Source: a virus. Taken from it: a stretch of DNA of 64,000 nt. The notes under the pieces were generated by a model. It made no database searches. It worked only from the letters and a program-made list of their open reading frames with translations, and was not told the origin of the DNA. Numbering within the stretch: the stretch's first letter is position 1; every line of letters starts with the position of its first letter. Positions 1,738-46,087 of this stretch are shown here, piece after piece. The position numbers and the translations under genes are program-made. The stretch is taken from positions 72,573 to 136,572 of the IMG/VR virus record IMGVR_UViG_3300020203_000008. One strand, given 5' to 3'.

Positions 1738-4700
1738 ATGGCTGATAACAATTTCGAATTTGGATTTACGTTCGACTGGTCTCAGCCAGAGCGCTCTACC
1801 GAACAGTTTATCCAAAAGGTCCGACGCGAGCTACAGCGTCTAAATCAGCTCTCTGTCTCGGGTGGTTCTCCGCTTAAGGGGGTTGAGGCTCTAGACTCGT
1901 CTACAAAAAAGCTGCTAGAGAGTGGAAGGCGCGCGAGCAGCTCTGCTACCGGATCTTCTCCTGCGGGTAAGCTGAATGAACAAGAAAAGGCGCGGGCTAG
2001 CGGCTTATCGGCCGAAACCAAAGCTCAGGGTCAGGCTGTTGAGGCGGTCAATGAGCGCCGTAGAGCCATTGATGCTCAAACTCGTCAGGCTGCACTCTTT
2101 ACCAAACAAGACGCAGCAAATCTTCAGCAACTCAAGCGAGTCAGAACCCAGAATGCTCTCACTAGTGAGGGCGCTGTTACTGCCGGTGATAATAAGGCAG
2201 CAGGGGAACTCGTTGCCGCTAAGCGTCGTAGAGCCACAGCAGAACAACAGGCTGCTGAGAATGCAGTAAATCCTGGTGACATTAGGGCTAATGCTGAGCT
2301 AGCTTCTTCTAAGCGTCGTCGTGCTCTGCGTGAGAACCTTGCGGCTGAGCGCACTTATACACCTGCTGAAATCCAGGCAACTGGTGATCTCGTTGCGGCT
2401 AAGCGTCGTCGCGTTACGAAGGAACAACAGGCTGCTGAGGGGGCTATTACTCCACAGGATAGGCAGGCAAGTGCCAATCTAGCGGCCATCAAGCAACGGC
2501 GTGTCGCACAGGAACGTGCGATTACAACTCGTCAGACGGCTAGTGATCAGGAACTTTTACGAGCTAATGCCGAATCTGTTGTCAATTCTCGTTTGCGTTC
2601 GGCTCGTGAGAAGTCGTTTGTTAATGAGGCTGCTCTTGGCAAGGGTCCAAATGCTGGAACTGCTGCTACTGCTGCGAAGCTTGATGCAGAGAATGCAGTA
2701 AATTCGAAGCGAATCCGCGCCCAGCAGCAGGCTCTTGAAGAAAAGGCTATTGCGAGCGGTCCTGGTGGTAGGACCGGGTTCGTAAATGAGCAGGCCGGAG
2801 CACGATCAAGTCAGGCTCTCCTTAATGCACAAATCAGAGCCGAGGCTACGCGTAGGCAGGCAGCTAGTTCTGAATATACTTCGGCGGTTGCTTCCACCGC
2901 CATCTCTCAGCGTCGTCTGAAGGCCAAGGTAGATGAGCAAGTAGCGAAGGCAGTTGTTGGAGATAGCGCGACCCTGCAACGCGAAGCAAATGCTGCTGTA
3001 GCTAAGAAAACTGCTGCAAACATTAAGTCTGCCAAAGTAGCGGAAAAGATTCTTGCTAATCAGTCAGGTGAGCTTGACGAGATTGTTCGTGCCAAGGTCG
3101 CTAATAAGCGACTCACTGCTGCTATTCAAGCTCGTGTTAATGCGGAATTGAAGGCTGCCCAGAACACTAATACGGCACCCGGCTCGGCTCAGGGTGGCGG
3201 AACCTTGTTCCAGCGTCTCCAATCACGCTTTGCTCAGCGAGGTAGTGGGCAGGGGGGGCAGGATCTACGTGCTCCTGAAGAGTTCCAGCGTCTCGGTCAG
3301 TTCGTTGGATCTAAGGCTCTTACTACCGGAGCTTTCGCCTTCTCGGGTGCAGCTCTCTTCGGTGTAGTGAATACAATCCAGGCTGCGGTTGAAGAGGCAA
3401 ACAAGTTCCAGGTGGTTATGGTTTCCGTGGAACAGCAGTTGATTTCCACAGATCAGGCTGGTCAACTACCACAGTTCCGTAAGGCTATTATAGACATCTC
3501 TAATGAGACGGGGGTTGCAGCCTCCGAGGTTGGTTCCGTTGCATTCCAGTTGAGGGGTGCATTCGGAGACACGGCTAAATCAGTCGCGGAGGCTAGCGCA
3601 GCGATTAAGCTCTCTGTCGTTTCTGGTCTATCGGTAGGAGATATTACTGATAGCCTTACCGCTACTGCATTGTCCTACAAGACTTCGATTAATTCGATTG
3701 GTGACTCAGCCCTTGGTATTCAGGAGCGTACCGGTGTGCTCGCTAAGGAGACCATCCGATTTGTGGCCGATATTGCTCCGGTGGCTAAGCAGGTAGGTCT
3801 TAGCCTCAAAGAGATCACGGCTATTGGTGCGGTTGCTCAGCAGCAGAGTGGTCGTGGTGGTGCTGCATTAGCTGAAGCCTTTGGTCGTATCCTTCCGGAG
3901 GTTCAGAAGAGTGGGTCAGCAATCCTTGAGTTGTATAACTCCACGCCTGCTCTGGCTGGACGTGTTGGCCAAATAGGTAATGCTCTGTCTCAAGGTAATA
4001 CGGGGACTGTACTTAAGGCTCTTATTGATGATTATGGCAAGCTTGATAGAACTACACAGAACTATGTCGTTACTCTACTCGGTGGTCGTCGTGAAGCTGC
4101 TTCTCTTATCCCGGTCCTCCGGAATGCCAGTAAAGTAAACCAACTGATTGCCCAATCGTCTACTGATGCAGGTAAGACGCAGGAGTATTTTGCTAGGGTT
4201 CAGAGAACCCTTTCGACTGAGGTTCAGCGCATCACTCGTGAGTTCCAGAACTTCATCGGAACGCTACTGCGTGCGGGCCTTTCGGACATCTTGAGGGATG
4301 TCCTCATCGTGGGAGGGCTTCTTCTCCGTGTTATCGGTGGGCTGGCCCGTACCTTCCAGTCCCTTAATGAGGTTCTTGGTGGCTTCCCGGTAAAGATTCT
4401 CGCCGGAGCGGCAGCAATGGCTTTGCTTCTTAAGAGTGCAAGAGCTTTGGGTGGACTAAACCTTGTTCAGTCTCTCGGTGGATTCTTTGGAATAGGTTCT
4501 CGGGCTGGTGGCCTAGGTGGAGTCCGAGGAATTGCCGGTCGTGTCGGTAACTTCTTTGGAGCTTCTTCTAATGCTGCACAATCTCAGCGTGCTGCTGCTC
4601 AGTCTGCTTCTGCGGCTCGGGGTACCCAGTTCTCTTCGCTGCTCGGACTCAATCAGGGTGGACTTCAACAGGCTCCGTTAGGTGGCCGACTTGGTGGGAT

Positions 4701-7179
4701 AAACCAATTTGTTCGCGGTCAGTCCAACTTCTTCAATCGAAGTAGTGGATTTGCTAACACAGTCGGTGCTGGTCTTGCTTTCGCTGGTGTTAATGTCCTC
4801 TTGGATTCTCGCACTAAGTACCAATCTGAAGCCTTGGACTGGGCGAACCGGATTCGAAGTGCCGATGAAGATGCTGTTGACAAGATTATTGCCAAGTACA
4901 ATAAGCAACAAGCCCCGACAAATACTCTCAAGGACAGTATCAGCGGCAAACTCAATGGACTCCTCCCTGTCGGTGGAGCGCTTCAGGGTCTTGCTGCATT
5001 CCTTACTAACGAGGAGTTCCGGGGTGAAGTAACAACCTTCTTTAGTGGGGGAAAGACCAAGGACGACGTTGTTGAAGATTCTCTCCAGCAAAGACGTGCA
5101 GCCAACAATACCGTTCCTCTCTTAGAAGCATTCAAGAGTGAGTATAAGAAGAGGAATACTGCAAGAATTGTTAAGTTCAAGGAGGTTGTTGATTTTCTAC
5201 AGAGCGGTCAGTTCGGTGAGGGTAAGATTCTTGAGATCTTCAAGGAGCCGGAAGCGGCAGCTAAGCTCACCGGCAAGCAAGCAGCGAAGCAGATTCAAGC
5301 TGTTATAGACTTCTTGGGTGACGGTTCAGATGATGCTGCCAATCAGATCGTTGAAAATTATATCCAGATTCTACAGAGCAACCCGGCTACTCCTAAGAGG
5401 CTCTTGAAGAATGTTGTTGCCGCGCTTCGTGATTCCCAGAAAAAAGCTTCAGATCAAGCTGGACCGACTGGCGCTGATCGCGAGACTCTTGATACATCCA
5501 AGGCTCTTTTTGAGGCTGGAGATAAGCCTCTTAATGAATACATCAAGTCCCTTGATTCTTTTATCTCGGCGCTTAAGACTATAAAAGATCCTAGTGATGA
5601 TCAAAAGAAGGACCTTGCCCAGAAGCAGAAGGAGGCTAGGGACGCCCTAACGACTGCGGCGAAGGAACAGAACGATCTCATCAAGTTTGTGGATGAACTT
5701 CGTGCTGGCGAAGCTCGTCCAATTGACCAGCTAAATGCAGCGAGAGGACTACTAAATAATCCCAATCTTACGGCAGAGGGTCAGGTTGAAGCGGCTAAGG
5801 GAGTTCTCTCTGCCCAGCAGGATGTGTTCCTCCAAGCTGTTACTTCTTCGGGCAAAGGCATCGGTAGCGTTATTGCTGATCTACAGGCCGGATTTAAGCC
5901 TGACGCCAAGGCACTTGCAGTCATTCGGAAGCGAGTAGCTGACCTTAATGCTCGTGGTATCAACGTCAGTGTTGATGATATTGTTGCTGGTCAGGCCAAG
6001 GGTGCCCGTGAGGAAGTAAACAAGCTTCTTGATCTTCAGGGTCGTCAGTCTGCCGTGGCGATTGGACCTAATGCTGTCAACCAGGCAGCCCTGTCTCTGC
6101 GTACCGCTCAGGCGAAGCTTAAGAATGCTGCTCCAGGTACAAGTACAATTGAAGCACAGACGGTTGTCCTTGAAGCCCAGAAGGGCTTGAATGATGCTAT
6201 TAGGACTCAGGCTCGGGCCGTTGAAGATGGTTACCAGGCACTCTCTCGGGCCTCGCTTGGGAATCAGAATCCTATTGCCCAGGCCAGGTTCGATATCGCT
6301 GGCGCTGATATCGCCACCCGTCGCGCCTACGAGGACCAGGATCCAGGTGCCCTAATCCAGGCGCTGGCTACTCGTCGCCAGGCTGGGGTTGCCCTCTTGA
6401 AGGCGCAACAGGACATTGACGACGCTTATAGGGAACTTCTCAAGAGTCAGACGAACGATCCAATTAAGCAGGCTTACTCAGATATTGTTGCAGCCAGTGT
6501 TGCTTTCGACAGAGCTAATGCTCAGAACGACCAGGCCGCTGCCTTCCGGGCCTTGGCCCAAAGGAATGAAGCCATCAAGGCAGGGCTTGCTAGCATTAGT
6601 GACCTGTACTCTTCCATTAATGAGTTTGCTACATCCCTCGCCAACTTTAAGGGCGATGCGGTGTCGGCTGCCGAGATCAGTGTCACTGAGGCTACTAGGA
6701 AGCTCCAGGAAGCCGTCAGTCAGGATGCTGGTCAGGCTTCTATTAATCGGGCTCGGGCGGCCCTACAGGATGCTCAGGGGGGTCTCCGGGATTCCAAGCT
6801 GAACAAGCAGTTGGACGATATCGACTTTGCTTTGGAGCTATCCAAGATCTCTGTTAATCAGGCCATTCAGCAGTTAACTGCTCTCCTCCAGATTCCTAAT
6901 CTAACAGAGGAGCAGACTCGTGGAATTCTGCGTAAGATCAACTCCCTGAAGCAGGGACTGAGCCAGGATCTCCAGTTTAATCTGCCAACTGAATTGAAGT
7001 TGCCTACCCTCTACGAGTCTCGCCGCTTGAACCAGAGCAATGGGGCTTACCAGGATAATCGAGTTATATCTATTCAGTTGTCTCCGAATACTCCGACAGA
7101 TCTTAATGCGGCAGTACAGCAGATTGTGGATGCCGTGAATCAGCCTCCTGTACTCGGATCAAGACCTAGGATTTATTGA
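1738..7179 (+). CDS. Tape measure protein
   Basis: 1813 aa, Ala/Gln-rich helical; TP901-like core at about aa 550-830; hydrophobic Gly-rich segment; follows chaperone. Confidence 0.92.
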   Translation: MADNNFEFGFTFDWSQPERSTEQFIQKVRRELQRLNQLSVSGGSPLKGVEALDSSTKKLLESGRRASSSATGSSPAGKLNEQEKARASGLSAETKAQGQAVEAVNERRRAIDAQTRQAALFTKQDAANLQQLKRVRTQNALTSEGAVTAGDNKAAGELVAAKRRRATAEQQAAENAVNPGDIRANAELASSKRRRALRENLAAERTYTPAEIQATGDLVAAKRRRVTKEQQAAEGAITPQDRQASANLAAIKQRRVAQERAITTRQTASDQELLRANAESVVNSRLRSAREKSFVNEAALGKGPNAGTAATAAKLDAENAVNSKRIRAQQQALEEKAIASGPGGRTGFVNEQAGARSSQALLNAQIRAEATRRQAASSEYTSAVASTAISQRRLKAKVDEQVAKAVVGDSATLQREANAAVAKKTAANIKSAKVAEKILANQSGELDEIVRAKVANKRLTAAIQARVNAELKAAQNTNTAPGSAQGGGTLFQRLQSRFAQRGSGQGGQDLRAPEEFQRLGQFVGSKALTTGAFAFSGAALFGVVNTIQAAVEEANKFQVVMVSVEQQLISTDQAGQLPQFRKAIIDISNETGVAASEVGSVAFQLRGAFGDTAKSVAEASAAIKLSVVSGLSVGDITDSLTATALSYKTSINSIGDSALGIQERTGVLAKETIRFVADIAPVAKQVGLSLKEITAIGAVAQQQSGRGGAALAEAFGRILPEVQKSGSAILELYNSTPALAGRVGQIGNALSQGNTGTVLKALIDDYGKLDRTTQNYVVTLLGGRREAASLIPVLRNASKVNQLIAQSSTDAGKTQEYFARVQRTLSTEVQRITREFQNFIGTLLRAGLSDILRDVLIVGGLLLRVIGGLARTFQSLNEVLGGFPVKILAGAAAMALLLKSARALGGLNLVQSLGGFFGIGSRAGGLGGVRGIAGRVGNFFGASSNAAQSQRAAAQSASAARGTQFSSLLGLNQGGLQQAPLGGRLGGINQFVRGQSNFFNRSSGFANTVGAGLAFAGVNVLLDSRTKYQSEALDWANRIRSADEDAVDKIIAKYNKQQAPTNTLKDSISGKLNGLLPVGGALQGLAAFLTNEEFRGEVTTFFSGGKTKDDVVEDSLQQRRAANNTVPLLEAFKSEYKKRNTARIVKFKEVVDFLQSGQFGEGKILEIFKEPEAAAKLTGKQAAKQIQAVIDFLGDGSDDAANQIVENYIQILQSNPATPKRLLKNVVAALRDSQKKASDQAGPTGADRETLDTSKALFEAGDKPLNEYIKSLDSFISALKTIKDPSDDQKKDLAQKQKEARDALTTAAKEQNDLIKFVDELRAGEARPIDQLNAARGLLNNPNLTAEGQVEAAKGVLSAQQDVFLQAVTSSGKGIGSVIADLQAGFKPDAKALAVIRKRVADLNARGINVSVDDIVAGQAKGAREEVNKLLDLQGRQSAVAIGPNAVNQAALSLRTAQAKLKNAAPGTSTIEAQTVVLEAQKGLNDAIRTQARAVEDGYQALSRASLGNQNPIAQARFDIAGADIATRRAYEDQDPGALIQALATRRQAGVALLKAQQDIDDAYRELLKSQTNDPIKQAYSDIVAASVAFDRANAQNDQAAAFRALAQRNEAIKAGLASISDLYSSINEFATSLANFKGDAVSAAEISVTEATRKLQEAVSQDAGQASINRARAALQDAQGGLRDSKLNKQLDDIDFALELSKISVNQAIQQLTALLQIPNLTEEQTRGILRKINSLKQGLSQDLQFNLPTELKLPTLYESRRLNQSNGAYQDNRVISIQLSPNTPTDLNAAVQQIVDAVNQPPVLGSRPRIY

Positions 7180-7588: not shown

Positions 7589-10201
7589 ATGCGTTTAGTA
7601 CCGACTGATTTTTGGAGGCTTTGGTCACAAGGTGGGCCTTTCATCGGTGATGCTGGGGCTCCTCATGCCCGTGTCACCGTGGAACCTAGCTATAGGCTTC
7701 GGGAATCGGCTACTACTGCTGTTGGTAGTTTTGCTAGGGGTCCTATCCGTTGGTTTCAACGTCAAGATAATAGTCAAACTGAGTTTGAGGTTCCTAATAT
7801 TCAGAGTATCCAAACTGAACGCAGTTTGGATGCTGATGCTGCATCATGTAACATTACATTGAAGAACCAGTGGATGAGAATTAATACCGACGCCATCTCT
7901 CCTGATGACGGAGAGTTGGGACAACCCGGTTATTTTACCTTCTCGCGTGGTGAATCTCCCGATGCTCAAGCTCGATGGGGTCATGAGACCATTGGAGACA
8001 CTACCTTATGGTATGAGACTGCATATCCTGATAGTTCATGGACTATAGGTCATGTTATTGGGAGTTCTGCGGTTAACTCTCCACCGAATTGGCCGGATGC
8101 CATTACCTCTATCATCTGGGATTCAAGAGGTACGGCTATTGCTGCCCCGCCAGGACAACTGTTTTGGCGATACCATTTTACATTGGCTTCGCCTAAGACT
8201 GTGCGGTTTTATGCCGCAGTTGATGATTACATGAAGCTGTATGTTGATGGAGAATTGAAAGTCAGTGAAATTGAAGGTCATAATGTAGTGACGGGTGGAG
8301 GCGGTTTGAGTATATCAACAGTTGTTGATATGTCTTTGGCTGCTGGAAGTCATTGTATTGCTATCCAGGGAGTTAACCATAATCAATATCCTGATTATGG
8401 TAATCCAGGTGCCCTTCTATTCGTTATGTATGAACGCATAGGGACTACCTTGGGTCCACGTATGTTCGGTACTGATGATGTAGCGAATTGGAAACTTCTA
8501 CCTTATCAGGCAACCGAACCTCCTCCTGTTATCTCTGGTTGGAATGAGATCCTCGTTCCAAATGCTTTGATTCGCACATATCAAGGCTATGGTGGAAAAG
8601 ATAAATCAATAGCCCAAGCATTAACTGATGGAAATATCATTCTTACAGGTGTTTGGCTGGTAGATTCTGTTAGGATCAATGCATCGGATAACTCGATAAC
8701 CCTTGCTTGCAGGGATATGGCAAAGCTGCTTATCGAGCAACAGGTTTATCCACCGTTAGTGCCGCTAATCTATTATCCTCTTCGTTATGCGCGCTATATT
8801 CTTGGGGCCGAATTCACACCCGACAATGCTCCGCAGTTCTATGATCTTAAAGTAAAGCTGAAGAGCAGCAATTATATACAGGCTAGTTCTGATGCTATAG
8901 CGGGACCTAATGGTCCGATTCATGGGCATGTTCCTTATGATTCTGATACGTCAAGGTTTGGGTCTCCCGGTTATGAGGGTGGTCGGGGTATAGATCCTAA
9001 TAAGTATTGGCTTTCAGAGGGTTATTCCAGTGCCAATCCTGCTACTGGTCCGTGGTTTGAGGTGCTGTGCAGGGAGGATATAGATGCTGTTTATGTCCGT
9101 CCTTGGGCTGGAAATTATCAATGTTTTGTATCGGTATTTGAAGTTGATGCTACTAGCTTCACAGATATTGGTGCCGGAATGGTTGACGGGATACCCTATG
9201 TGGCGCAGTTTGGGACTCCTTGGGAGACCCAAGCCTGGTATCGTTTAGGTCGAGTATATCGGCCTAATGTTATTAGATTTACTTTTAAGAATCTAGTACC
9301 AAGTCCCTGGGATGCACCAAATAATTACCGTGTAGGTATCCGTGGATTTGCCGTTGCCCTTTCTGATGATGCTATTGCAAATTCCAAGCGTGATGGAAAC
9401 TACAAAGACTATTCTGATATCGTTAAGGACTTGTTGTTGTGGGGAGGATTTTGGTTCTATAATCCAGTTCTTGCTAACAATGAAAGACCTCCCGTATATG
9501 GAAGTATCGAATCTACGGGAGCTTGGGCTGATGATGTTATTCCAGAGGATAACTTTGATAAACGTCCATTGATTGATGGCATCAATTTTTTCAAGGAAAT
9601 TGTCGGTTATGTCTTTAATGTAGATGAGACGGGTGCTGCCAATTTTCGTTCACCAAACTGGTGGTCTTTGGGTAATTTCTTTGAGGATGGAACTCGTACC
9701 AATTTTATGCCGGAGATTGACGAACGGCTTCAGTTGACGAATTATACGATTGAAGTATCGGACAAAGCGGCACGTTCCGAGATAATCATTGGTACTGCCG
9801 ATCCAACGGCAGGTTTTCAGGATACGATTACCTCGCGCTATGTACCCCCTAATCAGGATCTCCTCAAGGGCATGGTCCGTCCAGCCATGTGGAACAATGG
9901 GGTATTCACCAACAAGGCTGAGCAGGAAATTATGGCTCGACTGATTGCCCTGCATTCCTGGTTTGCTCAGCGCCAAGGATCTGTTACTTGTGTGGCTAAT
10001 CCAGCCATACAAATTGATGATCAGGTGAGGATATATGAGCGTCAGACTGGCGAGACTTACGTACATTATGTGCGGGGTATAAGCACCCAGTTCGACGTTG
10101 AACAGGGTAACTACACGATGACGCTTACGACGAACTGGTTGGGTGAACGAGATAACTGGGCTATTCAGCTAAGCGATTCAGCAACGACTTTTGGAGATTA
10201 A
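7589..10201 (+). CDS. Minor tail / baseplate hub protein with inserted carbohydrate-binding (PA14-like) domain
   Basis: Hub-like N- and C-termini (NPAIQIDDQVRI, YVRGIST); internal VDDYMKLYVDG...LAAGSHCIAI segment typical of PA14/galactose-binding folds. Confidence 0.7.
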   Translation: MRLVPTDFWRLWSQGGPFIGDAGAPHARVTVEPSYRLRESATTAVGSFARGPIRWFQRQDNSQTEFEVPNIQSIQTERSLDADAASCNITLKNQWMRINTDAISPDDGELGQPGYFTFSRGESPDAQARWGHETIGDTTLWYETAYPDSSWTIGHVIGSSAVNSPPNWPDAITSIIWDSRGTAIAAPPGQLFWRYHFTLASPKTVRFYAAVDDYMKLYVDGELKVSEIEGHNVVTGGGGLSISTVVDMSLAAGSHCIAIQGVNHNQYPDYGNPGALLFVMYERIGTTLGPRMFGTDDVANWKLLPYQATEPPPVISGWNEILVPNALIRTYQGYGGKDKSIAQALTDGNIILTGVWLVDSVRINASDNSITLACRDMAKLLIEQQVYPPLVPLIYYPLRYARYILGAEFTPDNAPQFYDLKVKLKSSNYIQASSDAIAGPNGPIHGHVPYDSDTSRFGSPGYEGGRGIDPNKYWLSEGYSSANPATGPWFEVLCREDIDAVYVRPWAGNYQCFVSVFEVDATSFTDIGAGMVDGIPYVAQFGTPWETQAWYRLGRVYRPNVIRFTFKNLVPSPWDAPNNYRVGIRGFAVALSDDAIANSKRDGNYKDYSDIVKDLLLWGGFWFYNPVLANNERPPVYGSIESTGAWADDVIPEDNFDKRPLIDGINFFKEIVGYVFNVDETGAANFRSPNWWSLGNFFEDGTRTNFMPEIDERLQLTNYTIEVSDKAARSEIIIGTADPTAGFQDTITSRYVPPNQDLLKGMVRPAMWNNGVFTNKAEQEIMARLIALHSWFAQRQGSVTCVANPAIQIDDQVRIYERQTGETYVHYVRGISTQFDVEQGNYTMTLTTNWLGERDNWAIQLSDSATTFGD

Positions 10202-14706: not shown

Positions 14707-15063
14707 ATGGCTGTAACTGCATCTGCTTCAGGAACTCAGACCGCAGAAGTGACGACAGAACATCAGTTGGCAGATACTTATGTCGCTGGAACTTATACGT
14801 TCCATGTTGATACGGTTAACCTGGCGGCGGGAGATGTTGTTGAGCTGAGAATTTACCAAATGATCTTGAACGGTGGAACCGCTAGGGTCATCTACTCAAC
14901 CAGATATGCAGGCGCTCAGCCTACCGACGATCTCATTAAGGTTAGCGTACCTGTTAGTAGCGAGCTAGGTTCTGCCTCGCCAAGCGTAGCGCTGCGATTC
15001 AGCTTGAAGCAGACTTTCGGGACTTCCAGGAACTTTCCTTGGAAGGTACTTAAGTACGCCTGA
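14707..15063 (+). CDS. Minor structural protein
   Basis: Beta-rich 118 aa with RBS; tail cluster. Confidence 0.55.
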   Translation: MAVTASASGTQTAEVTTEHQLADTYVAGTYTFHVDTVNLAAGDVVELRIYQMILNGGTARVIYSTRYAGAQPTDDLIKVSVPVSSELGSASPSVALRFSLKQTFGTSRNFPWKVLKYA

Positions 15064-16655
15064 TGGCATCTGCGTCGACCCGCCATATTGAAGTTCTCTT
15101 ACCTACTATAGCCGGATTGGTTAATCCAACTGTAGTAATAGCTACAAGCGCGGTTGGTTCTCCAGCGATTCAGACTAGTTCCACGGTTGTTGTCTCCACT
15201 GTTACTGCTGTTGCGGCGGTGGGGGTTGCTACAGTAGAGACTGGTACTCCAGCTACAGTTAATGCAACGGCGGTGAGTGCTGTTGCTGCGGTTGGAACGG
15301 TAACTATCACGACATCAGCCCTTGTGACTGCCGTTGTGGTGTCTCGTTCTGTGGCGGTAGGTGTACCTACAATCTCCACTATTACTTCTTCTCCAGTAAA
15401 TGTTGCTTGCGGGGTGTTCAGTAAATCCACATCCGCTGCTCCAGTGTCGCAATCTGTTACGCTTGGGTTTCAGCCCAAAGCGGTATTTCTGTGGTCTGAT
15501 AGTACGACCGTTGATGACACTCTAGCCACTAATGGCATGTTCACGGTGGGTATTACATCCTCTGTTACAGACTCTATCGCCGTGTGTAATTATGCACCTA
15601 ATGGGAGCAACTCGATCAACCGGCATAAGACACATGGAGATAGCAAGCTTATTGTTTTCAGGACAACAACAATTCTAGCAGAAGCCAGCCTGACATCTTT
15701 TAATGTAGATGGATTCACTATGTCGTGGACCACCAATAATGCCACGGCATACCGGATTAACTATATAGCCTTTGGCGGCGATGACGTTACTGCCCAGATG
15801 GTGAAATGGTATCCCACCGACAATATCGAGCAGTTCTCTGTTACTGGGGTGGGCTTCCAGCCTGATGCACTTCTTAATGTCAACAGTTATGTCAACTTTG
15901 ATGGAGGATCTCTTCCCCGCACTGTCACGGGAATCAACTTCGGGATTGGGGCAGCTTCGCCTTCAGGGCAATTTACCACTTACATGGGGGAGACGACGGG
16001 CTTCGGGGGCAACGAGGTTTCTTATTCTAGGTTCATTGATGATGGTTTCGTAAGCTTCAATGGATTTTTGGGGGGAACAGAGAGTTGTAGAATTGCCCTT
16101 GTCTCAATGGATGTAGACGGATTTACGGTGAATGCTACGAAAGTGGGCACCGGAGCCATTGAATTATACGCATTAGCGTTAAAATTTGATTCTGGGTCTA
16201 TAGAAGTAGGAAACTTCCAGAAATCCACATCCTCTGCTCCAGCTACACAGAATTTGTCTAGCGTGGTCATCTCTCCAGATTCTATGTTCTTTGTTGGGGA
16301 TAAAGTTACGACGCCAGATACCGATGTAGCTAACGCTCATCTCTATGTGGGTTCAGGGGATGATGCTGCTCAAGTGAGTACTGCTTGGGGGGCCAGGAAT
16401 GGGACGAATCCATCTGAAGTTAAGTCGATCAGTGGGGGCACTAAAGCTATTACTGTTAATGATGGCACTAATATGGGTGTCGCTGATGCTAAAGCTTCGC
16501 TATCTCTAGCGTCAGCGATTCCGGTTCTCACTTGGGACCCCAACTCATCTAATGCCGTTAATATGGGTTATATGGCATTCCAGTTCGGCGTGGAGTCTGG
16601 TGGCGGTGGGGGATCTGGCAATGCTGTCTTGACTCCTGGCTTCATTCCACTCTGA
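15063..16655 (+). CDS. Tail fibre / receptor-binding-like protein
   Basis: N-terminal V/A/T repeats (AVG-PT); repeated GFQPKA/GFQPDA and S-DVDGFT modules. Confidence 0.6.
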   Translation: MASASTRHIEVLLPTIAGLVNPTVVIATSAVGSPAIQTSSTVVVSTVTAVAAVGVATVETGTPATVNATAVSAVAAVGTVTITTSALVTAVVVSRSVAVGVPTISTITSSPVNVACGVFSKSTSAAPVSQSVTLGFQPKAVFLWSDSTTVDDTLATNGMFTVGITSSVTDSIAVCNYAPNGSNSINRHKTHGDSKLIVFRTTTILAEASLTSFNVDGFTMSWTTNNATAYRINYIAFGGDDVTAQMVKWYPTDNIEQFSVTGVGFQPDALLNVNSYVNFDGGSLPRTVTGINFGIGAASPSGQFTTYMGETTGFGGNEVSYSRFIDDGFVSFNGFLGGTESCRIALVSMDVDGFTVNATKVGTGAIELYALALKFDSGSIEVGNFQKSTSSAPATQNLSSVVISPDSMFFVGDKVTTPDTDVANAHLYVGSGDDAAQVSTAWGARNGTNPSEVKSISGGTKAITVNDGTNMGVADAKASLSLASAIPVLTWDPNSSNAVNMGYMAFQFGVESGGGGGSGNAVLTPGFIPL

Positions 16656-16689
16656 TTTATGTCGATATGTTCGTGACCTAAGGAGTCAC

Positions 16690-16875
16690 ATGGGACAGAT
16701 CCGTAAGCAGAGAAAAGTCGAGAAAAAGGTTGAGTCTGTAGCGGAACCGGTCGAAGCCAAGGACAGTACTGCCCTTAAAGCTGAAATGGATGCACTCCTA
16801 GATGAGATTGATTCAGTCCTAGAGGAAAATGCAGCGGAGTTTGTTAAAGGCTACATTCAAAAAGGGGGGGAATGA
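16690..16875 (+). CDS. pup: Prokaryotic ubiquitin-like protein Pup (C-terminal GGE)
   Basis: C-terminus DALLDEIDSVLEENAAEFVKGYIQKGGE matches the Pup signature (LLDEID-VLEENA--FV--YVQKGG[Q/E]); 61 aa; AAGGAG RBS. Confidence 0.92.
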   Translation: MGQIRKQRKVEKKVESVAEPVEAKDSTALKAEMDALLDEIDSVLEENAAEFVKGYIQKGGE

Positions 16876-17087
16876 ACGAAGAAGACGAGCTACTTCGCAA
16901 GCTGGACGAAGAAATGCAGGATCGCAAGGTCATCTCCCTCATCCTCCGAGAGGGGCAGCCGGTGGAGGTCGAAAATGGAGGGCTTCCAGCCGATACTGTA
17001 TTAGCAACACTATTTAAGGCTCTACTTTTCCTGGTCTTGGATGATTATATGGATGAAGACGAAATCCTTTACGAGGAAGAAGACTAG
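16872..17087 (+). CDS. Small acidic hypothetical protein
   Basis: ATGA overlap with pup stop; very acidic termini. Confidence 0.6.
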   Translation: MNEEDELLRKLDEEMQDRKVISLILREGQPVEVENGGLPADTVLATLFKALLFLVLDDYMDEDEILYEEED

Positions 17088-17101
17088 GGAAGAAGAGAGC
17101 G

Positions 17102-17290
17102 GTGAACAAAATCGCCATCCAGAGGGCTAATGGGATTACCAGAATTGGGATTCTCTGTGAAGGTCATACCTCCGATGCGATTGGAATTCTCGTTAAAGCG
17201 GGTAAGGAATACCGGATACGAGAGTACGACGGGCCTCAAATCTGTGAAGCCTGTGGACAAACAGACTATCTCCATGTGGAGGAGGGTTAA
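17102..17290 (+). CDS. Small putative Zn-binding protein
   Basis: C-x2-H and C-x2-C motifs; coupled to the holin gene. Confidence 0.5.
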   Translation: MNKIAIQRANGITRIGILCEGHTSDAIGILVKAGKEYRIREYDGPQICEACGQTDYLHVEEG

Positions 17291-17631
17291 TGAATTCGAT
17301 TGTAAAGCTTGATGTTGGTTTCTTGGCCATCGTTGCGGGTACGTTCATTCCGATCGTGGTCGCATTGGTAACCAAGTGGAAGACATCTTCAGGAGTCAAG
17401 GCTGTCGTTAATGGTTTACTAGCCGCTGTAGCCGGTGCTGTCGCTGTCGCTACCCAGGCTAATGGAGTCGTTAACGTCAGGAATACGGTAGGGGCTATTG
17501 CTCTAGCGTGGTTGACTTCTGTTGCCACCTACTATGGCCTTTGGAAGCCAACTGGAATTGCTAATGCAGTTGGTGAGAAGACCCAGAACGTGGGTATTGG
17601 TTCGAATCAATCCGGTATTCCGGGGGCATAA
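17290..17631 (+). CDS. Holin (actinophage-type)
   Basis: Three hydrophobic helices; P-VALVTK ... ATYYGLWKPTG motif typical of actinophage holins. Confidence 0.75.
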   Translation: MNSIVKLDVGFLAIVAGTFIPIVVALVTKWKTSSGVKAVVNGLLAAVAGAVAVATQANGVVNVRNTVGAIALAWLTSVATYYGLWKPTGIANAVGEKTQNVGIGSNQSGIPGA

Positions 17632-17633
17632 TT

Positions 17634-17900
17634 GTGGACCGGCTAAAGTCGGGCACGGCAGGATGGGTCCTTCTCACCGCATTAGTGTTGAGTTGGGACT
17701 ACGGAGTAGGTATGCGGGCGGGGGGAGAAACTCTCTCTTCCAGTTTTGCTAGAGCCACTCGCCATCCCCGTGCCCGATGGCCGGTTATATCTATGTGGGT
17801 TATCATAACGGCTCATTTGTTTGAACGGTTGCCAGAGATGGTTGATCCATTTCATCATATGGCAAAAGTAGTCAGCACGCGGGGGGCGGGGCGTGAGTGA
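17634..17900 (+). CDS. Membrane protein
   Basis: Two hydrophobic segments; GETLS...HL...DPF pattern seen in actinophage lysis-region proteins. Confidence 0.6.
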   Translation: MDRLKSGTAGWVLLTALVLSWDYGVGMRAGGETLSSSFARATRHPRARWPVISMWVIITAHLFERLPEMVDPFHHMAKVVSTRGAGRE

Positions 17901-19073: not shown

Positions 19074-19925
19074 ATGCAAGTGATGGATATGCTGGGGCGC
19101 ATTAGTGCCTCAAAAATGAGTACCTTCATGACCTGTCCTTTGCAGGCTAAATTCCAGTACCTGGACAAGCTTCCGAGGAAGCAGCATGCTTCGGCATCGT
19201 TCGGTACCTGTGTCCATCATGCTTTGGATTTCTATAATAATACCGGGGACCTTAATAGGTCCGTAAACGAATTCCTCGATGTTTGGGAGAATCCCGAGAA
19301 ACTAGGGGTGACTCCAGAGACCTGGCCTAAGGGTGGGACCTACGGCGGGATGCGTCAGCGTGGAATTGAGATGCTTCGTGGTTACCACGACGGTCTGAAG
19401 TGGGACACCAGAGAAGTCCTTGCCACTGAACACAAGTTTCTGGTCCCGCTGGGAGAGTTTGAAGTCACCGGATTCGTAGACCTCCTTGAGCTACGCAAGA
19501 ATAAGCGTGGCAAGTCTGAGATCCGAGTCGTTGATTATAAAACGAATAAGAAGCAACCATTCCTGAATTCGTTGCATCTTAATATTCAGTTCACCACCTA
19601 TGCTTATGCAGCCGAGCAACCTGAGTTTTGGTTAGGTAACGGTCCCGATTTTCCAGCCATGGAGAACGGGGCCTACTACTGGGAGATGTATAAGGACCTG
19701 CCGCGTCGTCCTATCTGGTATCAGCTAGAAACCCAGAAGGAGATGGACGCCGGGCTCCGAGACGACCAGGATTACATGCGTCTTTACCGGGTCTGCAAAG
19801 AGATGGCGAAGGCCGTGAAGTACGACGTGTTCATCCCTCAGATTAGTGGGGACTCCTGCGTGTTCTGTCCCTACACCGAGCCTTGTGGCATCCCGATTCC
19901 AGTTCCAGAGGAGGAAGATGAATAA
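19074..19925 (+). CDS. Cas4/RecB-like PD-(D/E)XK exonuclease
   Basis: SASK-TF-TCP, FGTCVH, GFVD...VVDYKT, QFTTY and C-terminal C-x2-C-x5-C. Confidence 0.88.
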   Translation: MQVMDMLGRISASKMSTFMTCPLQAKFQYLDKLPRKQHASASFGTCVHHALDFYNNTGDLNRSVNEFLDVWENPEKLGVTPETWPKGGTYGGMRQRGIEMLRGYHDGLKWDTREVLATEHKFLVPLGEFEVTGFVDLLELRKNKRGKSEIRVVDYKTNKKQPFLNSLHLNIQFTTYAYAAEQPEFWLGNGPDFPAMENGAYYWEMYKDLPRRPIWYQLETQKEMDAGLRDDQDYMRLYRVCKEMAKAVKYDVFIPQISGDSCVFCPYTEPCGIPIPVPEEEDE

Positions 19926-34042: not shown

Positions 34043-34948
34043 TTATTTACGTTCGGCTTTGAGCTTGTTTAGCCCAGCTTGGGTGATCGATCGACCGCTT
34101 TCAGTGTACTCGATCAGATCGAACTTAAACAGGAGCCTCTCTAGGTCCCTGACGGTCGGGTCGGGGATCTGGAGAACACTCTGAATGGGCTTCAGTCCTG
34201 CGGTGCTGCCAAGCTTTACGAGTGCTCGCAGATACTTGTAGTGCATGGCCGAGAGCCCGATCTCGTCTACCCGGCAAAGGATCATCACTTCTTCTGCGAT
34301 TGGGATTCGGTTCAGACTGTGCTGAAGATCTCTGGCTGCAAGAACAAACTGACGTGCGTTCCTGGGGATTCCTCCCGTTGCCTTGCCAAGCTTCTGGGAC
34401 ACCTCGATCGAGAACTCTAGCTTAATCTTGATTGCCATGCCCGCAACGATCAGTCCCATCTCTTCGTTCGTGTACTCCTCGAACACGGGCTTTGTCGGGA
34501 AACGATCGAACAGCGGTGCGATCACCTTGTCGGGCTCGGTCGTAGCACCAATGACTGTGATTAGATTAGTGGAGTGCTTTCGTCCCCGCCGATCTTGGAT
34601 GTATCCAGACTCCAGTAGGGGAAGGAGGCTCTCTTGTTCCTTCTTGGATCCCCGGTGGATCTCATCCAGAAGCAGGACGGTGGGTTCCCACTCGTTGTCT
34701 ACTTCCTGGATCATGCTAATCATCGTTCGTTCATCCACCGGCATGGTCAGGCTGATGAATTCGTATCCAAGTTCCTTCGCAATGATTGTGGCGAGCGAAG
34801 TTTTACCAAACCCAGGCGGGCCGGTAAGTAGAATATGGTCGAGCATATGACCCTGCGCCACAGCAGAGGCAATATGGATACTCAGTCGATCCTTCAGCAT
34901 GGTCTGACCAACAAAGTCTTTCCATGTGTCAACTCGAACCTGATCCAT
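34043..34948 (-). CDS. ruvB: RuvB-like Holliday junction branch-migration ATPase
   Basis: DFVGQ, LDHILLTGPPGFGKTSLA-IIA-E, DEIHR, IGATT, PL-DRF, G-PR-A and C-terminal winged helix. Confidence 0.88.
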   Translation of the reverse strand: MDQVRVDTWKDFVGQTMLKDRLSIHIASAVAQGHMLDHILLTGPPGFGKTSLATIIAKELGYEFISLTMPVDERTMISMIQEVDNEWEPTVLLLDEIHRGSKKEQESLLPLLESGYIQDRRGRKHSTNLITVIGATTEPDKVIAPLFDRFPTKPVFEEYTNEEMGLIVAGMAIKIKLEFSIEVSQKLGKATGGIPRNARQFVLAARDLQHSLNRIPIAEEVMILCRVDEIGLSAMHYKYLRALVKLGSTAGLKPIQSVLQIPDPTVRDLERLLFKFDLIEYTESGRSITQAGLNKLKAERK

Positions 34949-38345: not shown

Positions 38346-38780
38346 TTAGTAGTTCGGGAAGTCAATAAACATATCGGCAAGACCCTGATCCTTCAGGGTC
38401 TCAATCACGAGGTTCTGAAGGTCAGTGTAATTTTGGTCGCACCGTTCAAAGGCCATTACCGCAATCTTGAGCTTAACTTCCCACATCTTGAGGAAGTTAT
38501 CGAAATCTTCGGCCTTAGGGTATCCGGCAAAGATCTGAGGACAGATGAAAATGTTCAATCCGCCCTCTTCTCTGGGGATGGGCCACATGACGCCTTGTCG
38601 GGAAATTAAACCCGGATCTAGCTTCTCAAGTAGATTGTCGGCCCGAAGCATATCAATAAACTTATTCCACTGACTGTTAGGTTCCACGAACTTGATATGG
38701 ACGGTTGGGGCAATAAGCTGATCGGCCATGTAATGCCTTACGAAATCGACGCGTTCAACGTCCGTGAACTCGTTCGTCAT
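38346..38780 (-). CDS. Hypothetical protein
   Basis: ATGA overlap; 144 aa. Confidence 0.6.
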   Translation of the reverse strand: MTNEFTDVERVDFVRHYMADQLIAPTVHIKFVEPNSQWNKFIDMLRADNLLEKLDPGLISRQGVMWPIPREEGGLNIFICPQIFAGYPKAEDFDNFLKMWEVKLKIAVMAFERCDQNYTDLQNLVIETLKDQGLADMFIDFPNY

Positions 38781-39043
38781 CCACCTAGCTCCTTCACAGC
38801 CTTAAGGAGGTTCTCTCTAGCTTTGTCTTCGGTTGCATTAGCCAGAGCCCGCTCCAAACGCCTGTTCTCTTCTCTCGTGGAATCCAGAGCTTTCTGCATT
38901 TCTAGATTGGCAGCAATTAGAGCATTGACTCGACGGGCCATCGCAGCTTCTCTGGGTCCGTACAAGCCTGCTTCGCGGTCTATTTCCAGTTGGCTAGCTT
39001 CGCGTTCTATTTCCAGTTGGCTAGGTTCGTAGTTCTCATCCAT
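38777..39043 (-). CDS. Coiled-coil protein with C-terminal AxxxLxxxVKEL helix
   Basis: Likely start MDENYEP; internal 27-bp duplication. Confidence 0.55.
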   Translation of the reverse strand: MDENYEPSQLEIEREASQLEIDREAGLYGPREAAMARRVNALIAANLEMQKALDSTREENRRLERALANATEDKARENLLKAVKELGG

Positions 39044-39428
39044 TCCAGGACCATACTTTCTTCTTACCGACATTTGGGATATCAGCAACCTCTTTGGAGA
39101 GAGACAATGCGACATTCTCAGTTTGAGTTTTCGCCCATCCGGCATACTCTTCGACTTTAGCTTCGTACTCTTCTCCGTCCCGGATCTCATCCCAGAATTG
39201 GAGCCAAATATCCCACGGGTTAGGAAGCTTGTAGCCTTCTAGCTCTCTCGGGTTAATCTCGATTTTTATGACACGCTGACCCATGAGGACATCGATCATG
39301 CCCTCTGCCCAGCCACAAGGTGGACAGAGAAACCAGCCCCTAACCCATTCACCAGACCCGCGAGCTAGAGCAACTCTCGGCCACACAATCAGGGTCTCAC
39401 AGGCTGTGCAGTAATCGATCTTGCTCAT
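39036..39428 (-). CDS. Zn-finger hypothetical protein
   Basis: CTAC...CPPC. Confidence 0.55.
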   Translation of the reverse strand: MSKIDYCTACETLIVWPRVALARGSGEWVRGWFLCPPCGWAEGMIDVLMGQRVIKIEINPRELEGYKLPNPWDIWLQFWDEIRDGEEYEAKVEEYAGWAKTQTENVALSLSKEVADIPNVGKKKVWSWNG

Positions 39429-40618: not shown

Positions 40619-40955
40619 CGATTTGCTCCCCCGTGTCAAGAGCCGCAGCGATCTGCTGAAGCCTTCTTTCGGCGTCATCCATCTGAGCCCGCGAAACGGG
40701 CTTAAAGATTTCAACCATAGTTTTCACTTCGTTAATCCTCACATCGAAGATCCTCATTTCCGAGCCGCGACGATGCCTGTATTCTTCAGTCAACATGAAC
40801 TGGTATCGGGCTGGTGGATGGGCGTCGTTGTCATGTATCCCACAATAGATCACATGAGCGCCTTGAAGTGCGTCTTTCAGGTATTGGGCAGCCTCCCAAT
40901 TGCGGGTATCAATCAGATATTCTTGGCCAGGCCAAAGACGATCTTCAACTCCCAT
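40611..40955 (-). CDS. Hypothetical protein (paralog of next gene)
   Basis: G--Y-IDT--W...L-G-HV shared with 40945-41271; C-terminal tag helix. Confidence 0.6.
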   Translation of the reverse strand: MGVEDRLWPGQEYLIDTRNWEAAQYLKDALQGAHVIYCGIHDNDAHPPARYQFMLTEEYRHRRGSEMRIFDVRINEVKTMVEIFKPVSRAQMDDAERRLQQIAAALDTGEQIDV

Positions 40956-41271
40956 GAGCCAACTCCTTAGCTACCCTCAGCAATCCCTCAGTGGCAGCCT
41001 CAAGATCTTCAATCGTTGGGACACGGGCCAAAGTTAGTCCCTTGCTGTTGATGGTAAAGGTTTGTGAGTACCAGTAATCTTCGAAACCTTCTGCTAAATG
41101 CACGGCCACATGCGGTAATATTTCGCTGCGGTTAGGTGAAGGACTTATGGAATCTACGACGACGTGAACACCGTTTAGCTTGTCTATACCGGAGGAGTCT
41201 ACGCGCCAGGCTGTGGTGTCAATAACATACGTCTCGCCGATAATGACACTATAGGGAGTTGAAGATCTCAC
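40945..41271 (-). CDS. Hypothetical protein (paralog of previous gene)
   Basis: GETYVIDTTAW...LNGVHV; ends AATEGLLRVAKELA. Confidence 0.6.
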   Translation of the reverse strand: MRSSTPYSVIIGETYVIDTTAWRVDSSGIDKLNGVHVVVDSISPSPNRSEILPHVAVHLAEGFEDYWYSQTFTINSKGLTLARVPTIEDLEAATEGLLRVAKELAHGS

Positions 41272-42838
41272 GGACCGATTCCCCTGAAGTCAACGACTTA
41301 ATAGTCGCGACCTGCTGATCGCAAATCGTCCACATAGGTTCATCTCTAGCGGATCCACCAATGTTCACTCCCCAGACCTGGAAACCAAGCCGGTCCTGTT
41401 CCTTCTTGAACTCCGTGAGCCACTGATCATCCACACTGCACATACCATCAGTAGCGAACACGATGTCGGCCTTAACTGCACCAAACCGTTCGTGCTGCTC
41501 CTGAAGGATTGTCAGAGCATGAGTGAGGGGAGTCCGGAAATCGGTTCCCCCACCGAAGAAGAATTCAGCGAAGTCGAGCACCTTGTCGGCGTCGATGTTC
41601 TGTGAATCCCTAAAGTCGTCAATCCTGATTTGGTGCGGACTGCCGAACTGGATTGCATAGAACTCTCGCTTCTGCTTCCTCGCAATGTGCAGCAAGCACA
41701 GACCAAGAGCCTTGGTCCATATTTCAGGCTCACCACTCATCGAACCAGAACCATCGTGGCAGAAAACAATGCCGCCCTTAGCGACCTTCTCATAACCGCG
41801 CATCTTGTACTGAAGCAGGTTCCGATCCATGTACTGCTTGAAGAACTTCATCCTCCGTAGAGGGTGCATAAGCTGTCCAAGCTCAGACGGCAGGACACGA
41901 CGCAGGTTATTGCCCTGCTCCACGTCATACACTTCTTCCGGCGTGTAGTTCACCTTGCGCCGGTTCTCGGTGAAGGCCAAACGCTTCATAGGACCAAACA
42001 GTTCAGCGATCTTCTTAAACTTCGGGCTATTCAACTTCCGTGCAAGTTCCATACGCTCATTGGCGGGCAGACGGTGAAGTTGACCCGGCTCCAAACCCCA
42101 AGCCTGAGCCATGTTCTCCTGGGCTTCCATGTCCTCATTGGCCTGCTTCATGGCCTGCTTCATAGCGCCACGGATCTCGGGACCCGCACCGTTCAAAGCA
42201 TCCTTAAGCTCCTGGCCCTTCTCCTGCATCTGCTGCTGGAGAGCTTCCATACGCTCCTGAAGCTGCTTAGCCTTCTCCTGGTAATCCTGAGGCTCCGAAT
42301 CTTCGGGGTTGTTCTCAGTCCAATCCTTGAACATCTCCTCAAGGTCGCGCTGCTCCTGCTGAGCCTGAGCCATCTGCGCCATAAGCTCCTGAAGTTCCTG
42401 AGCAAGTTTCTGCTCCCCTTCGAGCTTGTCGTAAAGCGTTTCTATGTCAGGCTCAATGGTGTTGAATGCCAGAGCCGCACCAATGTCGTCGCCCTGAGTC
42501 CACATACGCAATTCTCTGTAGTCAGGGAGATCTACTGCTTCCTGCATAACCTTGCGGTTAACGAGGTTTTGAGGACGCACCTTGTTCTCGTCCAACAGGT
42601 CAGGATCAACCTTCCAAAGAGACAGGTAAAGATCCTGGGTTACTGGATAGGCAAGATCGCCAGCCTTGGAGTCGGCCAGCTTGTCTCGCATAGCCCGATA
42701 TTCCTTCATCTCCTCTAGGAGACGTTGGTGATCTTGCCGGTCGTAACGGTCGCTATCAATCGTAAATGGTGAAAGGTCGTTAGGGTTTGGGCTCTTCTTG
42801 CCCTTACCCATCCAATCTTTGAGAAAATCCTTAGCCAT
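41249..42838 (-). CDS. VWA-domain protein (ViaA/CoxE-like)
   Basis: MIDAS DGSGSM, GGGTDF, ATDG; N-terminal coiled coil; R-LPSEL. Confidence 0.88.
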   Translation of the reverse strand: MAKDFLKDWMGKGKKSPNPNDLSPFTIDSDRYDRQDHQRLLEEMKEYRAMRDKLADSKAGDLAYPVTQDLYLSLWKVDPDLLDENKVRPQNLVNRKVMQEAVDLPDYRELRMWTQGDDIGAALAFNTIEPDIETLYDKLEGEQKLAQELQELMAQMAQAQQEQRDLEEMFKDWTENNPEDSEPQDYQEKAKQLQERMEALQQQMQEKGQELKDALNGAGPEIRGAMKQAMKQANEDMEAQENMAQAWGLEPGQLHRLPANERMELARKLNSPKFKKIAELFGPMKRLAFTENRRKVNYTPEEVYDVEQGNNLRRVLPSELGQLMHPLRRMKFFKQYMDRNLLQYKMRGYEKVAKGGIVFCHDGSGSMSGEPEIWTKALGLCLLHIARKQKREFYAIQFGSPHQIRIDDFRDSQNIDADKVLDFAEFFFGGGTDFRTPLTHALTILQEQHERFGAVKADIVFATDGMCSVDDQWLTEFKKEQDRLGFQVWGVNIGGSARDEPMWTICDQQVATIKSLTSGESVREIFNSL

Positions 42839-43016
42839 GAGTTAGCCTTACTTCCGTGATTCTGTTACGCTGGATTGCAAGTTTGCTTTCAACAAAAACG
42901 TAATCCTTGTCCCAGCCAGTTACGGTCCAAGCACAGTTATCGTCATCATCATCAATGATGACTTGATCTCCTTTTTCAATCTCAATTTCTCTGGTAGCTT
43001 TTATCTTAAGGCTCAT
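42831..43016 (-). CDS. Small SH3-like hypothetical protein
   Basis: IEKGDQVII beta-barrel pattern. Confidence 0.5.
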   Translation of the reverse strand: MSLKIKATREIEIEKGDQVIIDDDDDNCAWTVTGWDKDYVFVESKLAIQRNRITEVRLTHG

Positions 43017-43481
43017 TTAAATCCCCAATACCTTCCTGGTAAAGATCGGCTTAATCAATTCCTCTAGCCCCTTAAAAGCATCACCTTGGATGCCGATATT
43101 CGTTCCTCCGTAGCTCAGGTGGTTGGGAACACCAAGTGTAACAAGCATCTCACTCAGTCTAACGCCTGTTGCCTTGTGTTCCTCCATCCGCTCTTGCCTA
43201 ATCGTTTGTGCAATCTGATGCTTCTTGATATTGAAAGCTTCTTCAGATTCGCGCTTAGCAGATTCATCGGCATAGTCTTTCCACCAACCAACGATAGACC
43301 GACCATGGATCTTGTAGTCCATCCCAGTGAGAGTTGTGGAGTTAAGGTAAACAACCATTGGGTGACCCGTCTTGTCCCCAACGCGCTTAACTACACCTTT
43401 TACTGGGTGGAGCAAACCCAAGTTAAACTTCTTGGAGACGATGGCAACTTCGGCTCCAGGGTAAAGATCGTCAGCGTTCAT
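43017..43481 (-). CDS. Hypothetical protein
   Basis: AGGAG RBS; 154 aa. Confidence 0.6.
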   Translation of the reverse strand: MNADDLYPGAEVAIVSKKFNLGLLHPVKGVVKRVGDKTGHPMVVYLNSTTLTGMDYKIHGRSIVGWWKDYADESAKRESEEAFNIKKHQIAQTIRQERMEEHKATGVRLSEMLVTLGVPNHLSYGGTNIGIQGDAFKGLEELIKPIFTRKVLGI

Positions 43482-43538
43482 CTGTCTCCTTCCGGGAGGG
43501 CTTGGGAGAGGGACGTTCCCCCTCCCAACAAAGCTGCA

Positions 43539-44726: not shown

Positions 44727-44748
44727 TATTACCTTTCTGTACGGTTAT

Positions 44749-45917: not shown

Positions 45918-46087
45918 TACGGCTCCTTATACGATTCGATTTCTTCTTGCTCAAAAGCCTCTTGCAGAACTTGGATTAGCTCACCAAGTTTACGATCGAT
46001 GATGACACCCCAAATCTTATTGGGTCCACCAAGCTCTACGGTGCCGACTAGACCACCGTCGTTTAGCTCAACTTTGATTCTGGGCAT
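45917..46087 (-). CDS. Small hypothetical protein (56 aa)
   Basis: Not in ORF track; fills gap; TAATG coupling to 45917 start. Confidence 0.45.
   Translation of the reverse strand: MPRIKVELNDGGLVGTVELGGPNKIWGVIIDRKLGELIQVLQEAFEQEEIESYKEP

Follow-up and report, generated by a model that had tools for sequence, protein, structure and literature searches.

A prokaryotic ubiquitin-like protein encoded by a phage without enzymes of pupylation, and its possible use of the host pathway

Why would a phage encode the protein tag of a bacterial pathway and none of the enzymes that work with that tag? The question is raised by a stretch of viral DNA of 64,000 nucleotides (nt), here called the window, which is the right-hand 64 kb (positions 72,573 to 136,572) of the 136,572-bp IMG/VR virus record IMGVR_UViG_3300020203_000008 (CheckV completeness 96%; guanine-plus-cytosine [GC] content 50.7%). 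A plus-strand gene at positions 16690-16875 of the window encodes a 61-amino-acid (aa) prokaryotic ubiquitin-like protein (Pup) with the C-terminus GGE. Pupylation has so far been studied as a purely cellular process, in Actinobacteria and a few other phyla. Full-text searches of the literature, with supplementary gene tables outside their coverage, returned no paper on a phage-encoded Pup; database annotators have already labelled such genes, both in the record of Streptomyces phage Dagobah and in JGI names. What is new in the present analysis is the syntenic retention of the gene in a distant relative, a check for chimerism on contigs of other sequencing runs, and the demonstration that the GenBank record MT835496 is cellular at its Pup locus.

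The phage Pup and the enzymes of pupylation

The 61-aa open reading frame (ORF) matches the Pfam family PF05639 (Pup) over residues 3-61 with an E value of 3.5e-19 and a score of 69.9 bits (cut-off 27), and the NCBIfam model TIGR03687 with 62.5 bits (cut-off 41.45), thereby passing both curated cut-offs. In a six-frame search of the whole genome, the phage Pup was recovered at 69.5 bits. A Shine-Dalgarno-like AAGGAG can be read from the sequence at 16680-16685 on the plus strand, 4 nt 5' of the pup ATG, and the protein ends in FVKGYIQKGGE, followed by a TGA stop codon. Over residues 34-61, 23 of 28 positions are identical to the Pup peptide in the crystal structure with the depupylase Dop (7OY3_B). 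The stretch of residues 28-61 aligns with the M. tuberculosis Pup in 3M9D (with the Mpa coiled coil) and in the PafA-Pup fusion 4BJR, and the phage protein also aligns to the Pup in 7PX9. All 10 columns that are invariant in an alignment of 30 viral and environmental Pups are retained. The earlier note on this DNA, made without database searches, had claimed a GGE-ending ORF with a strong ribosome-binding site and a Pup-like C-terminal half, and the coordinates, the AAGGAG and the alignments bear it out. Taken together, these data indicate that the phage protein is a true, full-length and canonical Pup and that, at the level of sequence, its C-terminal half retains the helices to which Mpa, PafA and Dop bind.

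The phage protein resembles cellular Pup in its length, in its terminal Glu, in the core LLDEID..VLEENA..FV..Y.QKGG and in a K/Q/E-rich, presumably disordered N-terminal part, which in the phage Pup comprises 27-30 residues ahead of the conserved core and is K/Q/E/V-rich in composition. Two features that had been read as special to the phage turned out to be ordinary. The nearest environmental Pups have N-termini that are likewise K/Q/E-rich, so that the Lys-rich N-terminus is not a phage trait. The GGE end is no commoner in viral Pups than in others: of 26 non-redundant viral Pups, 11 end in GGE, 13 in GGQ and two otherwise, and the best 120 database matches include 53 GGE and 64 GGQ ends. 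The phage Pup differs from cellular Pup in being encoded by a virus and in standing alone, without dop, pafA, arc/mpa or prcBA in the same genome.

The canonical Pup-proteasome locus is arc-dop-pup-prcBA-pafA. Its hallmark, pup beside dop or pafA and usually together with arc and prcBA, is absent from the phage genome. Across the 136,572 bp, PF03136 (Pup_ligase, covering PafA and Dop) and PF00227 (proteasome subunit) gave no match. The single genome match to PF00004 (AAA) is a RuvB homologue (window 34043-34948, minus strand), which is full-length (RuvB_N 97 bits, RuvB_C 44 bits, PDB 1IXS with an E value of 4.6e-29) and is 49% identical in the relative G002 described below. As a positive control for the enzyme search, five out of five Pup-holding cellular genomes each gave two PF03136 genes close to pup. 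The absence of pafA, dop, arc/mpa and prcAB, first noticed in the window, has thereby been confirmed and extended to the whole genome.

Because the phage genome carries a WhiB gene (48.7 bits, cut-off 23.6), its host is probably an actinobacterium. A pattern scan of species genomes had matched mostly Nitrospirales, and a Nitrospirota host was considered and rejected, given that the phage has WhiB. In a quick tree built on few columns, the Pups of Nitrospirota stand apart as a clade (support 99) to which the window's Pup does not belong.

A relative of the phage provides the evidence on whether the gene is kept. This IMG/VR phage, G002, is 163,481 bp long with terminal repeats (CheckV completeness 100%) and has a GC content of 60% and a WhiB gene of its own (70.6 bits). 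When the 230 ORFs of the window phage, called greedily, were compared with G002 by tblastn, 59 matched at E ≤ 1e-5; the matches are collinear, have a median identity of 46% (identities being those of the best segment) and run through the packaging, head, tail, replication and minus-strand early regions. The two phages have pup in the identical slot, with the tail genes ahead of it and the exonuclease behind, and the identity of the two Pups, 64.2%, is the second highest among the 59 shared genes, over a segment of 53 aa only. In G002 the order is Gly-rich fibre-like genes, Pup (ending in GGQ), a 45-aa ORF overlapping the Pup stop codon, a membrane ORF, a 61-aa Cys-rich ORF, a 255-aa ORF, an endolysin with Amidase_2 and PG_binding_1 domains lying 1.6 kb 3' of Pup, a 141-aa ORF that has a hydrophobic N-terminus and matches no Pfam family, and the exonuclease. 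The fibre genes of the window phage and the acidic ORF that follows its pup have no counterpart in G002. The comparison indicates that Pup is kept in one slot, under evident constraint, in a distant relative. Retention in one slot over such divergence is therefore the strongest argument that the phage needs pup.

Pup in other viruses and its origin

The earlier note had suggested a survey of pup and its neighbourhoods in phage genomes, and this has now brought together 35 IMG/VR records and one cultured phage. A pattern scan of 2.9 million IMG/VR contigs gave 163 pattern matches, and 35 of the records encode a Pup relative. None of the 35 has a match to PF03136; WhiB is present in seven, most of the records being fragments. 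The neighbours of viral Pups, surveyed in 137 ORFs trimmed by hand from 227 within 3.5 kb, are mostly portal proteins, large terminases, HNH endonucleases, exonucleases and endolysins, and no proteasome or ligase family occurs among the 25 of 56 families listed. In many of the IMG/VR loci, Pup lies just 5' of terminase and portal genes. At loci L010, L013, L016, L018, L027, L033, L035, L037, L039 and L042, Pup stands up to about 1.5 kb 5' of pairs of ORFs of terminase and portal size, and in these loci a small ORF often follows Pup in translational coupling with it.

Four Pup queries run against 50,697 GenBank phage records found two records. One is that of Streptomyces phage Dagobah (MT711977.1), the only cultured phage with a Pup among the 50,697, in which HUN42_00036 (QMP84414.1), directly 3' of the endolysin gene, is annotated as 'ubiquitin-like protein Pup'. 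Like the window's Pup, the Dagobah protein is a phage-borne orphan with a GGE end beside a lysis gene. Unlike the window's Pup, it is 78 aa long with an insertion, ends in VGGE and is only 60% identical over residues 28-61. The Dagobah phage itself has a genome of 47 kb and is unrelated to the window phage by DNA; a megablast search of the pup locus against GenBank phages gave no match. A term search of the Dagobah paper (PMC7650747) found no mention of ubiquitin, Pup, pupylation or proteasome. The second record, MT835496.1 ('UNVERIFIED: Bacteriophage sp.'), was rejected as a source of a phage Pup. It holds a cellular AAA-dop-pup-pafA locus at 41133-46216, in which a 63-aa Pup is flanked by two Pup_ligase genes (576 and 490 bits), and at least that part of the record is bacterial DNA.

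The relationships among Pups were examined in a quick maximum-likelihood tree of 151 Pups and 67 columns, which is poorly resolved and from which five viral rows with truncated start calls were left out. The group that contains the window's Pup is weakly supported, comprises 27 environmental and six viral members (the window's Pup counted) and lies outside the well-supported Nitrospirota clade; the other viral members are L002, L009 (the G002 locus), L016, L019 and L034. The viral label changes 13 times on the tree for 23 viral rows, with at least three of the changes forced by well-supported branches, and on this tree phages evidently acquired Pup more than once. Because the best matches in a collection of 5.8 billion proteins are unnamed and only 64-70% identical, and the best match in 401 sampled Actinomycetota genomes is 57% identical (residues 6-61), the gene was evidently not copied recently from any of the cellular pup genes sampled.

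Possible roles of the phage Pup

The mechanism of pupylation is described in the review PMC3511204. Pup is disordered when free. With Mpa, its C-terminal half makes up a shared coiled coil, and the N-terminus of Pup is fed into the pore of the ATPase. A terminal Gln is converted by Dop through deamidation, PafA couples the terminal Glu to a lysine, and Pups that end in Glu skip deamidation. The view that the C-terminal Glu of the phage protein is ready for ligation is consistent with this account. Given that the phage Pup has all the sequence features needed and that the phage encodes none of the enzymes, it is simplest to suppose that the phage Pup is used by host PafA and that the phage thereby raises or redirects the flux of host pupylation with its own tag. 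We consider this probable at roughly 55%. Pup would be made together with the late genes, and its terminal Glu would be activated directly by host PafA, without deamidation by Dop. The phage Pup would then be attached to lysines on proteins of the infected cell, and the tagged proteins would be handled by the host ARC/Mpa ATPase, plus the proteasome where the host has one. The purpose may be to degrade host proteins or early phage proteins as a source of amino acids, or to remove defence proteins.

Several points weigh against use of the phage Pup by the host enzyme. That PafA accepts this Pup is something we infer from its sequence, and the host is resolved to phylum, with its PafA, ARC and proteasome assumed. 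Pup matches to the window's query were found in only 196 of the 401 sampled Actinomycetota genomes. A place in the late operon is unusual for a host-takeover gene and suits a protective or structural role at least equally well. Moreover, because half of the viral Pups end in Gln, readiness for ligation is not general among phage Pups.

Such a protective role might be played by Pup as a decoy or inhibitor. Abundant free Pup would sit on the ARC/Mpa coiled coils or in the PafA and Dop grooves, block pupylation-dependent degradation and so shield freshly made virion proteins in the late phase. We regard this as possible and rather unlikely. The position of pup with the late genes and its good ribosome-binding site are in its favour, as is the conservation of the Mpa-binding helix. 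According to PMC3769308, Pup-GGE is itself a proteasome substrate, so that free Pup could compete. The tail and fibre proteins of the phage contain 1.5-2.6% lysine versus 6-8% in the replication proteins, in a comparison made without a control. Nevertheless, the GGE end and both enzyme-binding helices are fully canonical, and an inhibitor would not need all of these. A ligatable Pup would also be consumed by PafA, and nothing in its sequence separates the phage Pup from cellular Pups.

It is less probable still, and in our view doubtful, that the phage uses Pup for programmed tagging of its own proteins, either virion and lysis proteins (for structure or timing) or early proteins (for clearance at the late switch). 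Pup does lie beside lysis or structural genes in several lineages (the window, G002, Dagobah and the IMG/VR loci), and several unrelated minus-strand ORFs of the phage end in a common Lys-bearing motif, [AVF]KEL plus 2-4 residues. Against this, no conjugate is in evidence, and the adjacency to late genes may reflect only where accessory ('moron') genes are tolerated. To our knowledge, PafA needs no motif of the [AVF]KEL kind, which also counts against programmed tagging.

The motif itself, L..[AVF]KEL plus 2-4 residues, is found at the ends of the minus-strand ORFs 38777-39190, 40945-41271, 46540-46926, 49798-50283 and 54704-55048. In the greedy gene set, three ORFs carry it versus 0.21 expected by shuffling, and one of 2000 shuffles reached three. 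Any link between this motif and Pup is pure speculation. With the same reserve, late-made Pup and host PafA might form a developmental switch that clears early phage proteins, several of them with a C-terminal helix ending in ...[AVF]KEL, via ARC and the proteasome, and the orphan Pups of at least three separately supported viral groups might, more broadly, be the prokaryotic counterpart of viral ubiquitin; we give this combined idea very little credence.

There is also a slim chance that pup is a passenger, captured by chance from a host and without a role for the phage. Pup is small and easily captured, and on the tree the viral Pups are interspersed with cellular and environmental ones. This explanation is difficult to reconcile with the occupation of the same slot by the second-best conserved shared gene in two phages whose median identity is 46%, or with the recurrence of Pup in 35 viral records. 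The composition of pup also matches the phage (GC 0.46; neighbouring genes 0.48-0.50), and none of the cellular Pups sampled comes nearer than about 57-64% when most of the length is compared.

The earlier note had named a host-phage chimera at this locus as a possible flaw, and such cases do exist, as the cellular Pup locus under a phage label in GenBank MT835496 illustrates. Eleven sequencing runs contain the whole or part of the stretch, ten from microbial mat (2018) and one from soil (2023), and the bridging contigs were taken from runs not marked as a possible source. A contig of run X5 covers 16565-17848 with no difference, and the junction region is also present in contigs of X10 (16468-16804) and X8 (16701-17020). 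Run X9, from another study and another year, gave a contig spanning 16795-17006 with one change, at 16895, which was read by hand as synonymous, at the third position of a Leu codon in the acidic ORF. The exact protein of that ORF is recorded from eight contigs, the longest of 136,667 bp. Given that contigs of other runs bridge the junctions, that phage genes on the same strand abut pup on both sides, that the terminally repeated phage G002 has the same arrangement and that no Dop or PafA is encoded anywhere in the genome, an assembly chimera or host contamination is practically excluded, and the locus stands as phage DNA.

The nearest parallel to the phage Pup is found in baculoviruses. Baculovirus v-ubi is a copy of a host tag that comes without conjugating enzymes and depends on those of the host. 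As with the phage Pup, the virus carries the tag only; the two differ in that v-ubi has the beta-grasp fold of ubiquitin and Pup is disordered, and in their chemistry and host domain, so that the likeness is one of analogy only. In bioRxiv 10.1101/756791, Baculoviridae are said to encode viral ubiquitin, the retention of which implies a function of its own. Bil-type anti-phage systems resemble the phage Pup in that a ubiquitin-like tag is at work during phage infection, and bioRxiv 10.1101/2023.09.04.556158 describes the conjugation of such a tag to the central tail fibre of the phage. In those systems the host encodes the tag together with E1, E2 and a deubiquitinase, against the phage, whereas here the phage encodes the tag alone, and the tag belongs to the unrelated Pup family. 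By analogy, the phage Pup might be viewed as a mirror image of the Bil-type tagging of phage tails.

The presence of the tag alone in a virus implies that phages may exploit or disturb pupylation, much as some eukaryotic viruses carry ubiquitin. Phage-host conflict would gain a new layer, in which control of host proteolysis, recycling of amino acids and the escape from or use of pupylation could all be at stake. The question is testable, as Dagobah is cultured and its host S. coelicolor is genetically tractable. In addition, a natural Pup variant may serve PafA-based proximity-tagging tools.

The gene run around pup

The pup gene lies within a tight, unbroken, same-strand run that leads from the tail genes to a holin-like gene, all on the plus strand. 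The tail part includes a tape-measure protein (1738-7179; phrog_991, 'tail length tape measure protein', E value 8.7e-6), which has a homologue in G002, and a tail protein (7589-10201) in one run with it. The last gene of the tail run, 15063-16655, encodes a 530-aa virion or fibre-like protein and stops 34 nt before pup. It has an A/V/T-rich repeat N-terminus, and Pfam and PHROG searches assigned it no family; the ESM-Atlas clusters closest to it are viral (feature score 0.91, TM 0.66-0.69). The 'tail fibre' label for this ORF derives from gene position. The earlier placing of pup between tail-fibre and holin genes is consistent with a PHROG holin match downstream and a tail run upstream, and the fibre identity is positional only.

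Promoter and terminator consensus scans gave no excess over shuffled sequence, and no sites from the fibre gene to the holin-like gene. From the arrangement of the genes, we infer that pup is co-transcribed with the late genes.

Directly after pup, a 71-aa strongly acidic ORF (16872-17087, plus strand) shares an ATGA overlap with the pup stop codon, which confirms the coupling described previously. Neither Pfam nor PHROG has a family for it. A HMMER search of 1.84 billion representative proteins found five relatives of 72-85 aa, all from Logan assemblies, with E values from 3e-8 to 1.6e-4 and 35-44% identity. They share the conserved core TK[IV]IS[IV]V...LPE..VIATLFKALLF..D and an acidic tail, indicating that the acidic ORF defines a small unnamed family. 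No relative was found in IMG/VR or in two JGI metagenome scans. Three long repetitive proteins that also matched were set aside, as the matches look compositional and suggest no convincing family. A complex prediction for Pup with the acidic protein gave no support (score 0.01, mark 0.32), which counts as evidence in neither direction.

The next ORF (17102-17290, plus strand, GTG start) encodes 62 aa with a putative zinc ribbon. The Cys/His pattern on which it had been called Zn-binding is present (C19-x2-H22 and C48-x2-C51), and metal binding is suggested by that pattern only. Its one relative is the 61-aa Cys-rich ORF at the corresponding place in G002, a weak match (BLASTP E value 0.001, 27% identity) in which the Cys ligands are aligned. 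For the acidic and Cys/His ORFs alike, tblastn gave no match in 121 other loci, and word-index searches returned only the ORFs themselves. In five of 28 loci, the first 800 nt 3' of pup contain the start of a small ORF with two C-x2-[CH] motifs. Counted over all frames, such ORFs make up 5 of 103 small ORFs near pup and 10 of 818 elsewhere, one of the five being endonuclease-like by eye, and the zinc-ribbon ORF was rejected as a Pup partner since this association is too weak. By these comparisons, neither small ORF appears to be a conserved partner of Pup.

The 113-aa holin-like membrane protein (17290-17631, plus strand; phrog_8269 'holin', E value 7e-10) has hydrophobic segments visible in its translation, and its start overlaps the stop codon of the 62-aa ORF by 1 nt. 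It is followed by an 88-aa DUF7427 protein (17634-17900, plus strand; PF24202, 45.7 bits, cut-off 27), and the start and stop codons of both overlap or abut those of their neighbours. As regards an endolysin, PF01510 (Amidase_2) and PF01471 (PG_binding_1) had no match in the whole genome, in a search confined to these two lysin families. Two small ORFs then lead to the replication and recombination module (exonuclease, AAA_24 protein and primase-helicase), which is opened by a PD-(D/E)XK exonuclease (19074-19925, plus strand; PF12705, 103.6 bits; phrog_69 and phrog_1218). This gene is the synteny anchor with G002, being 55-58% identical to its homologue there.

Two further observations concern the rest of the record. 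The repeats at the N-terminus of the 530-aa ORF (window 15063-15400) are of the same type as those of a 367-aa A/V/T/P-rich protein encoded outside the window (record 42581-43684), which has no lysine and 0.8% arginine. Also outside the window, between record positions 47099 and 56429, several ORFs resemble glycosyltransferases by eye, and one resembles a nucleotide-sugar dehydrogenase.

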